DNA of 61,173 nucleotides from Candidatus Micrarchaeota archaeon (GTDB lineage: Archaea > Micrarchaeota > Micrarchaeia > Anstonellales > Bilamarchaeaceae). Positions within the stretch are counted from its first letter, which is position 1; every line of letters starts with the position of its first letter. The translations under genes were made by a program, and so were the position numbers. This document shows positions 7,694 to 47,982 of the stretch, one piece after another. The stretch is from assembly GCA_016212505.1 (NCBI GenBank), contig JACRGB010000046.1, positions 1 to 61,173 on the forward strand, in the 5' to 3' direction. The notes under the pieces were generated by a model, which saw only the letters and a program-made list of their open reading frames with translations, was not told the DNA's origin and did no database searches.

Positions 7694-7796
7694 TAAAATA
7701 ATACCTCATTTTTAAAATCTTCTTCAGAATATTAATTATCGAATTTTGAGTAAAATCAGAACTCTAGACTGTGAACCGGGAACAGAAAACATTACT

Positions 7797-7937
7797 GCTG
7801 GGGTCGCCTAGCCCGGTATGGCGGCAGGTTGCTAGTGCCTTTTAGTAAAAGGCACCCCAAAACGGGGTTGCTATTGCTAAGGCATGTGGAAACCTGTTGC
7901 GCGTGAGCGTTCGGGAGTTCAAATCTCCCCCCTAGCG
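7797..7937 (+). tRNA. trnS: tRNA-Ser(GCT) with 57-nt intron at 37/38 (7835-7891)
   Basis: Acceptor GCTGGGG/CCCTAGC, anticodon stem GCAGG/CCTGT, anticodon GCT at 7831-7833, long variable arm GCGC-GTGA-GCGT, T-arm GGGAG-TTCAAAT-CTCCC, discriminator G, no encoded CCA. Confidence 0.93.
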
Positions 7938-7997
7938 AACGAAGTGAGCTGGGGGGGTACTTGAACGAATCGTCGTTCAAGAAGACCCCCCTAGCGA
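7927..7997. repeat. 12-bp duplication of the tRNA-Ser 3' end around a hairpin insert
   Basis: CCCCCCTAGCGA at 7927-7938 and 7986-7997. Between them lie GCTGGGGGGG and TTGAACGA-atcg-TCGTTCAA. Confidence 0.8.
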
Positions 7998-15114: not shown

Positions 15115-15460
15115 AACTGATAAAAGTAATAAATATAAGATTAAGGAATTTGAACGCAGAGTTTACGCAGCATGCGCTAAAATCCCAAAAGGCAAAGTTT
15201 CCACTTATTCTGCAATCGCCCGCGCAATTGGAAAACCTGGATCGGCAAGGGCAGTTGGAAATGCATTAAACAAAAACCCACACTCATTCAATCTCAAAAC
15301 CCAAGACGCAAAACACAAGACACTTGTTCCTTGCCATCGGGTGGTTCGGTCGGATGGTTCGGTTGGCGGATATGCGCATGGAACTAAAGCAAAGATTGCG
15401 ATACTAAAAAAAGAAGGAGTGAAAATAGTGGCTGGGCGAGTAAGGTTAAAGAAAAATTAA
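15104..15460 (+). CDS. ogt: Methylated-DNA--protein-cysteine methyltransferase
   Basis: IPKGKVSTY, ARAVGNALNKNP, active-site PCHRVV. Confidence 0.93.
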   Translation: MKTKTDKSNKYKIKEFERRVYAACAKIPKGKVSTYSAIARAIGKPGSARAVGNALNKNPHSFNLKTQDAKHKTLVPCHRVVRSDGSVGGYAHGTKAKIAILKKEGVKIVAGRVRLKKN

Positions 15461-36595: not shown

Positions 36596-36862
36596 GGGGT
36601 TATGGCGTAAGTGTTACCAGTTTTGAGTCTTGAGTTTTGTTTTTACAAAACGAAGCAAAACGGAAAACTCGAAACTGTGCACAGCGTGGCCAGGTAGCGC
36701 GGCAGTCTCCAGATCAACTCTCGCCTAAAACGGCGAGAAATTTAGCCGCGAAAACTGCATGTCGGAGTTCAAAAGAGTTTTCAGTCCTGTGTTTTGAGTC
36801 TTGACGAATCGTTCAAAACCCAAAACGGAAAACTGGAAACGCGGAAGTTCTCCGTGACCCCA
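36596..36862 (+). tRNA. trnW: tRNA-Trp(CCA) with three introns (about 36610-36688, 36713-36752, 36774-36848)
   Basis: Joined exons give 73 nt: GGGGTTATGGCGTA|GCCAGGTAGCGCGGCAGTCTCCAG|AACTGCATGTCGGAGTTCAAA|TCTCCGTGACCCCA. Acceptor GGGGTTA/TGACCCC, D stem GCGT/GCGC, anticodon stem GCAGT/ACTGC, T stem CGGAG/CTCCG. Intron 1 boundary was placed to keep A14; its BHB is weak. Confidence 0.88.
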
Positions 36863-36878
36863 ATTTTTAGGTGAAAAA

Positions 36879-46806: not shown

Positions 46807-47982
46807 ATGATAAAGCTTGAGCTGGACCGCAAAAAGCGCCTGATAATGGTTAAGGAGCCATCTGATGTCTCCTCATTGCAGAACGGTTTTTACGGCCAGA
46901 TGAAAAAAGGAATAATTTACCTATCCCCAGAAGAAGCGTTGTATGTGATGGATATTCGGAATGGAAAATGCTACGACGATGCTGGCAACCCGTTTACATT
47001 CAATGACATTGCCTCGCTATTTCTCAAAAACAAAAAATTGCTCGCCCGCTGCCTCACATATAAGGATTGGCGCGATAAAGGGCTGGTGCTTCGGTACATT
47101 AGCGAAGCAGAAGGTGGGTATGGCAGGACAGTTCTCAAAAAATACACGAGTGCGCCATTTAGGTTAGATGCTTTTGGTTTTGAAGGGTTATTTTTTCCCA
47201 ACGACCTTATTACAATGGTTGATGACCAAACGGTCGGGAAAGAGCTCTATGAGCGGTATTGGATCGGGCAGTTTGGAACCTATAAGGCATCCCATCGCGG
47301 GACAGTAGCCAAATATGATATTTATGAGACTATTTTCCTGCTAAAAAGCGGAAACCTCATGCTTAAGGGCTGTAACCTTGCAACCGTAGAGAAAGTTGCA
47401 AAGAAAAGGATCAAGTTCTTTGAGGATATTTACCTTGTTTACGAAGACTGGCGATCCCGCGGGTATGTGATTAAGACCGGCTTTAAGTTCGGGACGCATT
47501 TTCGGATTTATTTCCCTGGGGCTTCGCCAGTCCGAAGCGAAGACGAATGGATGCACTCGAAGCACGTTATCCATGTTTTCCCGAGGAAGCATAAACAGCT
47601 GATTTCGGAATGGGCCCGTGCGATCAGAGTGGCCCACTCGGTCAAGAAAACGTTCATCCTCGCGATTCCCGGAAAGAAAAAAGAAATCAAACTTAGCAAA
47701 ACCAGATCGCGGCTCGATTTTTTACTATACCATAGGAAGAAGGGCGGTATCGAAACGCCAAAAGACGGTTCGCCAAAATACCTGATGTATTCCCTGACCG
47801 AAGACGAATACATTGGTGGTGAAGAATTGTACGAAGCATTGGCAGAGTGCAAGCAGTTTGGTTTGGAAATGGTGGTTGCAATTAGTGATCGGGAGAGCAG
47901 CGTAACATATTATATAATTAAGGAATTGGAACTTCCTGGAAGCGAATATGAGTACTATGAGATTGAGTGGGTTCAGCCTTAA
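46807..47982 (+). CDS. endA: tRNA splicing endonuclease (multi-unit, epsilon-type size)
   Basis: LSPEEALY, YKDWRDKG, YEDWRSRGYVIKTGFKFGTHFRIY, HSKHV, AHSVKK (Tyr/His/Lys triad); 391 aa from ATG 46807 after GAGGTG. Confidence 0.93.
   Translation: MIKLELDRKKRLIMVKEPSDVSSLQNGFYGQMKKGIIYLSPEEALYVMDIRNGKCYDDAGNPFTFNDIASLFLKNKKLLARCLTYKDWRDKGLVLRYISEAEGGYGRTVLKKYTSAPFRLDAFGFEGLFFPNDLITMVDDQTVGKELYERYWIGQFGTYKASHRGTVAKYDIYETIFLLKSGNLMLKGCNLATVEKVAKKRIKFFEDIYLVYEDWRSRGYVIKTGFKFGTHFRIYFPGASPVRSEDEWMHSKHVIHVFPRKHKQLISEWARAIRVAHSVKKTFILAIPGKKKEIKLSKTRSRLDFLLYHRKKGGIETPKDGSPKYLMYSLTEDEYIGGEELYEALAECKQFGLEMVVAISDRESSVTYYIIKELELPGSEYEYYEIEWVQP

Follow-up and report, generated by a model that had tools for sequence, protein, structure and literature searches.

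Can a gene that consists mostly of inserts still give rise to a transfer RNA? At positions 36596-36862 (+) of the window, by which we mean the whole stretch of 61,173 nt that was analysed (contig JACRGB010000046.1 of the Candidatus Micrarchaeota assembly GCA_016212505.1), removal of three segments of 79, 40 and 75 nt from a 267-nt locus leaves a 73-nt cloverleaf, which the program ARAGORN calls tRNA-Trp(cca). The three lengths and both ends of the locus, which starts with GGGGTTA and ends with TGACCCCA, are exactly those given in the initial annotation of the sequence. The inserts are located in the D loop, the anticodon loop and the T loop, and they make up 73% of the gene length (Table 1). 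We hold with high confidence that the locus is a functional tRNA-Trp(CCA) gene, belonging to a Micrarchaeota archaeon from groundwater and spliced by a predicted EndA pathway.

It had been suspected that standard annotation would miss such a gene, and it does: applied to the unspliced sequence, ARAGORN reports no tRNA at this place with or without its intron option, and Rfam gives no match anywhere in the window at the gathering score. The sole tRNA that ARAGORN finds in the window with introns allowed is a tRNA-Ser at 7796-7938. After splicing, the core nucleotides U8, A14, G18 and G19, A21, U33, the pair G53-C61, U54 U55 C56 and A58 are all present. Read from the spliced sequence, the anticodon is CCA, the discriminator base is A73 and the first pair of the acceptor stem is G1-C72. 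For archaeal and eukaryotic TrpRS, the identity rule for tryptophan is A73 with G1-C72. Upstream of the gene, a TATA-like box that is a putative archaeal promoter lies within a block, AATCTAATT..TTTAATAAA, that is retained in the nearest relative (L191), and the ATTTTT run directly behind the gene likely acts as an archaeal oligo-T terminator.

Table 1. Features of the tRNA-Trp locus and of the splicing endonuclease gene, in window coordinates
Feature	Coordinates	Strand	Remarks
TATA-like box TTTAATAAAA	36559-36568	+	28-37 nt upstream of the tRNA 5' end; read from sequence
Exon 1, tRNA positions 1-15, GGGGTTATGGCGTAA	36596-36610	+	
Intron 1, 79 nt, D loop, 15/16	36611-36689	+	bulge-helix-bulge scan
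Module GTTTTGAGTCTTGA in intron 1	36620-36633	+	exact repeat in intron 3 at 36791-36804
Module CAAAACGGAAAACTCGAAAC in intron 1	36656-36675	+	repeat in intron 3 at 36821-36840, 19/20 identical
Exon 2, tRNA positions 16-37	36690-36712	+	anticodon CCA at 36708-36710; G37
Exon positions 23-28, CGCGGC	36698-36703	+	complementary to the 3' end of intron 2; conserved in all orthologues
Intron 2, 40 nt, canonical 37/38	36713-36752	+	
GCCGCG near the 3' end of intron 2	36745-36750	+	partner of exon positions 23-28
Exon 3, tRNA positions 38-59	36753-36773	+	
Intron 3, 75 nt, T loop, 59/60	36774-36848	+	
Exon 4, tRNA positions 60-73	36849-36862	+	A73; CCA not encoded
ATTTTT run directly 3' of the gene	36863-36868	+	read from sequence
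endA, three-unit epsilon2-type tRNA splicing endonuclease, 391 aa	46807-47982	+	about 10 kb downstream of tRNA-Trp

To which organism does the locus belong, and is it conserved? A single sequencing run, of a groundwater metagenome, contains the stretch; with accompanying runs the number comes to three, all of them DNA, and the search gave no RNA run. The genes nearby are archaeal (deoxyhypusine synthase, proteasome beta and a CPSF-type nuclease), and the close relatives of the proteasome subunit all come from Candidatus Micrarchaeota metagenome-assembled genomes. In a first search the tRNA was seen in 16 of 70 related loci, which are designated here by L numbers, and later look-ups added L047, L069, L191 and L193-L199. 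All orthologues have tRNA-Trp directly upstream of the gene for an FKBP-type lipoprotein. The order tRNA-Trp, FKBP lipoprotein and, later, psmB and CPSF is common to 15 tRNA-holding relatives; the lipoprotein of L043 gave no match.

The number of introns differs among these orthologues. All of them contain the anticodon intron (32-102 nt). The D-loop intron (19-82 nt) is present in the window, L191, L017, L012, L023, L011, L008, L022, L043 and L198, and absent from L016, L070, L002, L019, L025, L021, L028 and others, while a T-loop intron is found at 59/60 in the window, L191 and L194 and at 58/59 in L022, L011 and L002. With syntenic orthologues that carry one, two or three introns, and with the spliced cloverleaf, the identification of the locus as a tRNA-Trp(CCA) gene interrupted by three introns is borne out. 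Because the exons are joined in differing combinations among relatives, every exon junction of the window is uninterrupted in some relative: the 15 nt of exon 1 run into CC(A/T)GG without intron 1 in L002 and, with T6C, in L016 and L070, and exon 3 continues directly into exon 4 in L017, L012, L016 and other relatives. The single-intron orthologues L016, L070, L019 and L028 are called tRNA-Trp(cca) by ARAGORN with introns allowed.

Over 14 distinct spliced orthologues, 99.7% of the cells of the cloverleaf are paired, and 9 of its 21 pairs have changes on both sides. None of 500 shuffles was as good, and slid controls paired in 33-49% of cells. Taken together, exon identity, the orthologues and the covariation of the cloverleaf exclude chance and pseudogene decay of the exons.

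Could the window nevertheless hold a decaying or silent copy of tRNA-Trp, broken by hairpin insertions, with another, uninterrupted gene supplying the tRNA? We consider this highly improbable. Small hairpin insertions at tRNA genes are known in this lineage, intron 2 has no proper splicing motif and the central helix of intron 3 is mismatched, all of which speak for such a copy. The exons, however, are under strong purifying selection, since the spliced sequence is 72/73 identical to those of L191 and L017, whereas the adjacent FKBP proteins are 55% and 37% identical, respectively. Moreover, the insert boundaries fall exactly in 3-nt bulges, the features of intron 2 are kept in more than 20 orthologues, some of which have intron 2 alone, and the gene occupies a conserved syntenic place. 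When the contigs of the source sample were compared with the contiguous exon 3-4 of a relative, only the window's own contig was recovered, diverging into intron 3 at A59, and no uninterrupted 3' half at 88% likeness or above was found among these contigs; a divergent second copy may nonetheless exist. Contiguous 5' halves were seen only on contigs at depths of 3.3 (a contig of 212 nt), 45.5 and 2.6, compared to 17.3 for this genome, and therefore belong to other organisms. A pattern scan of the metagenome with CGGCANNCTCCAGATC was too loose and was swamped by chance matches in GC-rich bacteria.

Archaeal introns of this kind are recognized by splice sites lying in 3-nt bulges with a 4-bp helix between them, or by a published relaxed form of this motif (HBh', hBH/BHL), and this is the architecture of introns 1 and 3, where it is conserved and compensated in orthologues. 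For intron 1, the scan for bulge-helix-bulge motifs gives the bulges AAG and GGC, an inner helix of 3 bp and an outer helix of 2 bp. The central helix is formed by G10 C11 G12 U13 with GCGT at 36684-36687, with all four pairs present, two of them G.U. It is fully paired in all 10 orthologues with intron 1 (L023, L191 and L198 were read by hand), and in L043 compensatory changes place the D-stem strand GTGC opposite GCAC. Splicing at 15/16 yields the D loop AACCAGGUA, identical in L016 and L070, both of which are without intron 1. Because the central helix is kept in the orthologues and the D loop matches that of relatives without intron 1, intron 1 is assigned to 15/16, with A15 and not G15 in the mature tRNA. 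The core of this intron is a 60-nt hairpin (36618-36677).

In intron 3, the native 5-bp T stem serves as the outer helix and the bulges are AAA and GUU. The central helix, UUCA against GGAA, has three of four pairs and one A.G mismatch, and the inner helix consists of a G-C pair, one mismatch and then 8 bp (GTTTTCAG/CTGGAAAC). This central helix is shared by the intron of L191 at 59/60, and in L194 it is perfect (UUCA/UGAA). The initial annotation had placed the junctions at about 14/15, 37/38 and 59/60. The last of these stands, and the first moves by one base to 15/16; 37/38 is right as stated, and the literal split of the letters, which fell at 36/37, was one base off. Its description of the introns as strongly hairpinned agrees with predicted energies of -28.2, -12.5 and -22.4 kcal/mol (z = -3.9, -2.8 and -2.6) for introns 1, 2 and 3, respectively. 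The conformer in which all three splicing motifs are formed lies 18.6 kcal/mol above the predicted minimum.

The anticodon intron is built less regularly. It contains a 7-bp hairpin (TCTCGCC/GGCGAGA), its outer helix is the 5-bp anticodon stem and the bulges are in the right positions, but the central helix is degenerate (CUCC vs. CGCG, two of four pairs) and there is no inner helix. The intron is 90% identical between the window and L191. In all orthologues, CUCC at positions 32-35 lies opposite CGYG or GCCG, which amounts to two G-C pairs and two pyrimidine-pyrimidine mismatches. In L025 and L043, an inner helix of 3-4 bp is separated from the anticodon stem by an exact 7x7 internal loop; relative to this geometry, the group of the window has two extra nucleotides and forms no inner helix. 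The junction is set at 37/38, with G37 and not A37 in the mature tRNA, because the split at 36/37 would give C37 in L019 and U37 in L022. Other registers (35/36, 36/37 and 38/39) were rejected, because position 37 would become a pyrimidine in L019 or L022 or because the helix did not improve. Our reading is that intron 2 represents a relaxed motif, in which the anticodon stem and the 3-nt bulges are kept and the mismatches would be tolerated by an ARMAN-type enzyme.

As the initial annotation had pointed out, the anticodon intron has no C/D boxes; TGATGA and CTGA are absent from all three introns. An Rfam search gave no match of the snoRNA type in intron 2, and a permissive search returned only chance-level matches to microRNA-like hairpins. 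The intron of euryarchaeal pre-tRNA-Trp is said, after Clouet-d'Orval 2001 and Singh 2004, to encode a box C/D guide for Cm34 and Um39. Like that intron, the one described here is a lineage-conserved 37/38 intron that pairs with exon nucleotides. Unlike it, the intron is 40 nt long, has neither C nor D boxes, and has its exon complement at positions 23-28 and not around positions 34 and 39.

What, then, is the role of this complementarity? The GCCG near the 3' end of the intron is kept in more than 20 orthologues (L022 has GUCG, retaining a G.U pair) despite a distance of 2, 4 or 5 nt to the 3' splice site. It is the complement of exon positions 25-28; at positions 23-24, to which the pairing continues, the two sides covary (CGCGGC/GCCG(C/U)G vs. 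UACGGC/GCCGUA). Predicted folds of both the single sequence and the alignment favour this helix over the anticodon stem, and GGAG, the perfect partner of CUCC, is never used in the orthologues. These features would fit a conformational switch, which would take the place of a relaxed splicing motif recognized within the tRNA-like fold: GCCG would first pair with exon positions 25-28 and block the D and anticodon stems, with splicing taking place after rearrangement. Such a switch could set the sequence in which the three introns are removed, or retain precursor that is still unspliced. We put it forward as our best guess for this helix, and as less likely than not: the covariation comprises just one or two independent events, position 24 is mismatched in L019 and L194, the helix is short (4-6 bp), and the literature consulted has no comparable element among the EndA substrates. 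An outer helix proposed by RNAalifold (19-22/40-43) is coincidental, as it breaks where the anticodon stem covaries (L070); L016, which is outside the RNAalifold alignment, gives by its sequence the same G22.G40 break.

Several geometries for the removal of intron 2 were rejected. If exon 25-28/GCCG were the central helix, a cut at 30/31 would delete the anticodon. A pseudoknot of 23-26 with CGCG stacked on the anticodon stem would require a 3-nt linker to span 9 bp, and if the anticodon loop paired with the T-stem strand GGAG, no helix would adjoin. For the helix of exon 23-28 with GCCG, no workable arrangement as a productive splicing geometry was obtained. The relaxed motif described above is our preferred reading of this intron.

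Which enzyme would cut such a precursor? The three-unit endonuclease encoded in the window aligns over residues 4-391 to the EndA of ARMAN-2 (PDB-code: 4FZ2) with E = 1.5e-132. The catalytic residues Tyr-236, His-251 and Lys-282 (Y236, H251, K282) are conserved in the alignment, as are Y160 and K161 of the ARMAN-specific loop and K228, R275 and W384; the roles of these residues are taken from PMC12397907. According to published work (PMC3239211, PMC3488258, PMC12397907), the epsilon2 EndA of ARMAN-2 cuts both strict and relaxed motifs, and the EndA at 46807-47982 would be expected to cut all three introns.

On the anatomy of exons and introns, the motifs of introns 1 and 3, the orthology, the covarying cloverleaf and the intact endonuclease described above, a pathway of the ordinary archaeal kind can be proposed, of which we infer the cleavage, the ligation, the order of the cuts and the recognition of the poorly structured anticodon intron. 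A precursor of about 270 nt would be transcribed from the TATA-like box and end at the oligo-T run. The epsilon2 EndA would then cut six sites within motifs of the bulge-helix-bulge type at 15/16, 37/38 and 59/60. An RtcB-type ligase would presumably join the four exons to the 73-nt tRNA, and CCA would be added after ligation.

Comparable systems have been described in the same phylum. In ARMAN-2 (Candidatus Micrarchaeum acidiphilum), 56% of the tRNA genes are disrupted, some by several introns (PMC3239211), and the pre-tRNA-Cys intron at 59/60 is reported to be cut in vitro by the epsilon2 EndA (PMC3239211, PMC3488258, PMC12397907). The window shares with ARMAN-2 the same three-unit enzyme with its catalytic and ARMAN-specific-loop residues, non-canonical intron positions including 59/60, and tRNA genes of which some have several introns; in the ARMAN-2 system, in vitro cleavage extends to relaxed motifs. 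In comparison to the published ARMAN-2 examples considered here, however, which have one or two introns of 13-25 nt, the gene of the window has three introns of 40-79 nt, amounting to almost three quarters of its length, and compared with the strict canonical motif of ARMAN-2 pre-tRNA-Ile, its intron 2 is the more degenerate.

We next consider where the introns came from. Introns 1 and 3 are patchily distributed on a tree of proteasome plus CPSF, with L022 having both and its sister L070 neither. An exact 14-mer and a 19/20-mer occur in the same order in introns 1 and 3 of the window, and when the two are aligned globally, z is 5.7 (arm-preserving shuffles; 0/500 reach the score). Both arms of their core are made of 7-nt repeats, with the units GTTTTSA and GTCYTGW in the 5' arm and units ending in AAAC in the 3' arm. 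Intron 1 of L008 and L022 and intron 3 of L194 have the same arrangement of heptads, as does tRNA-Arg intron 2 in the window, L008 and L009. Since the heptad core is also found in tRNA-Arg intron 2, introns or their cores have been copied between sites. Further matches were obtained between Trp intron 3 and Arg intron 2 of the window (z = 3.2), and between Trp intron 3 of L191 and both Arg intron 3 (z = 8.1) and the Ser intron (z = 6.3) of the window, with 0/500 shuffles reaching the score in each case. Families of transposed introns, as described for Thermoproteales, are defined by significant similarity across intron positions or across tRNA genes, and the matches given here are of this kind.

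Two other tRNA genes of the window have such introns. The tRNA-Arg(TCT) gene at 41141-41439 also has three introns. The first 11 nt of its intron 2 (41279-41347), GAGTTTTCAGT, are identical to those of Trp intron 3, and the intron forms a heptad hairpin; the central helix has three of four pairs and the inner helix at least 6 bp. Its intron 3 (about 41369-41423) is the homologue of the L191 Trp intron 3. The tRNA-Ser intron (7835-7892) carries a TTTTAGTAAAA hairpin and a CCCAAAAC module. Trp intron 3 of L191 and L011 has this combination too, and in several relatives it is found again some 3 kb downstream of psmB. A 13.9-kb contig of the source sample, at depth 17 as for this genome, has another T arm (GGCCGAGGGTTCAAA) followed by the same intron start, AGAGTTTTCAGT; this T arm probably belongs to another tRNA gene of this genome, one that has a family-1 intron at 59/60.

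No relative has a more similar FKBP neighbour than L191, whose flanks are almost the same as those of the window. Its intron 1 is only 21 nt long, and the ends of this intron, TGTTAC ... GTGACAC, match the ends of the 79-nt intron 1 of the window. Its intron 3 is located at the same 59/60 site with a core that is unrelated to that of the window (z = 0.8) and matches instead intron 3 of L011 and the tRNA-Arg intron 3 and tRNA-Ser intron of the window. These matches of cores across positions and tRNA genes indicate that cores are exchanged while the short ends with the splicing motif stay. A possible though doubtful reading, based on these comparisons, is that the heptad hairpin cores are mobile modules for which introns of the splicing type are safe landing sites. 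If true, the landing sites would include Trp 15/16 and 59/60, Arg 37/38 and one or more other T-loop introns of the same sample; the comparison of the window with L191 would show the insertion of a hairpin of some 58 nt into an intron 1 of 21 nt and a replaced intron-3 core, and both changes would be recent.

The T-loop intron also differs in position. At 58/59 (L022, L011 and L002) the outer helix is in a shifted register of the T stem, as compared to 59/60 in the window, L191 and L194. The homologous cores of L011 and L191 suggest that the intron slid by one base.

Small repeats and hairpins also occur at the ends of tRNA genes and between genes. Directly 3' of the L191 tRNA-Trp (L191:665-760), there is a 44-nt hairpin insert, for which the window (36856-36866) has the empty site. 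The insert is flanked by an 11-nt direct duplication, GACCCCAATTT, comprising the last 7 nt of the tRNA and 4 more, and holds an inverted copy of the tRNA end, so that it looks like a small element or a fold-back duplication targeting tRNA 3' ends. After the tRNA-Ser of the window (7927-7997), the 12-mer CCCCCCTAGCGA is repeated 59 nt on around two hairpins, in the same pattern as the L191 insert. One-armed arrays of 7-nt units (GTCTTGT GTTTTGC GTCTTGG GTTTTGA), intergenic and without a complementary arm, are found at 15294-15321 (-) of the window and at L045:4247-4310, L046:4653-4673 and L058:7761-7788. Finally, hairpins with a GAACGAAGTGA loop are found repeatedly, within tRNA introns or a short way 3' of tRNA genes: in intron 2 of L022 and, twice, of L016, and at 7937-7950 and about 41478-41490 of the window. 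The tandem G.A pairs that close these loops resemble a K-loop, a possible candidate for an L7Ae site.

Might introns 1 and 3 be functional after excision, for example as stable circular RNAs or as protein-binding heptad hairpins, instead of being selfish or neutral filler? Their hairpins are more stable than shuffled sequences (the z-scores given above for introns 1 and 3), and the heptad architecture recurs in intron 1 of other orthologues, in tRNA-Arg intron 2 and in L194 intron 3, with one-armed arrays outside tRNA genes too. The nearest relatives, however, have an intron 1 of 19-21 nt and an intron 3 that is missing or unrelated; the presence of both on the tree is patchy, C/D boxes are absent and the Rfam matches are at chance level. 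A role of the excised introns therefore seems improbable to us.

The initial annotation had stated that tRNA genes with three introns are known mainly from Thermoproteales, which agrees with PMC4033280. For this group, multi-intron tRNA genes and intron transposition (Sugahara 2007, 2008; Fujishima 2010) are reviewed in PMC4033280 and PMC4090602. The window is alike in several respects: a tRNA gene can have as many as three bulge-helix-bulge introns, canonical sites are combined with non-canonical ones, introns of different tRNA genes and positions resemble one another, and introns are gained and lost rapidly. On the other hand, Thermoproteales are Crenarchaeota with an (alpha-beta)2 enzyme, whereas the window stems from a DPANN archaeon with an epsilon2 enzyme. 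Also unlike Thermoproteales, the shared part here is the heptad hairpin core, which in intron 1 lies inside a short ancestral intron whose ends are kept.

What does the gene add to the biology of these archaea? Multi-intron tRNAs and the broad-specificity epsilon2 enzyme of ARMAN-2 have already been published, and the gene is a known kind of object; because heavily disrupted tRNA genes are on record for the ARMAN-2 lineage, it is less exceptional than the initial annotation implied. With three introns making up most of its length, it represents extreme tRNA disruption beyond Thermoproteales, in environmental Micrarchaeota with an epsilon2 endonuclease, and extends the published link of a broad-specificity enzyme to intron load. 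Since standard tRNA finders are blind to such genes, genomes of this group would be scored as being without tRNA-Trp, which affects inferences on completeness and codon usage. The degenerate yet conserved anticodon intron is a natural substrate on which the limits of recognition by epsilon2 EndA can be studied. Gain, loss and swap of inserts are unusually fast among close relatives, and these relatives with their differing intron states provide fine-grained material on intron gain, loss, one-base shift and exchange.
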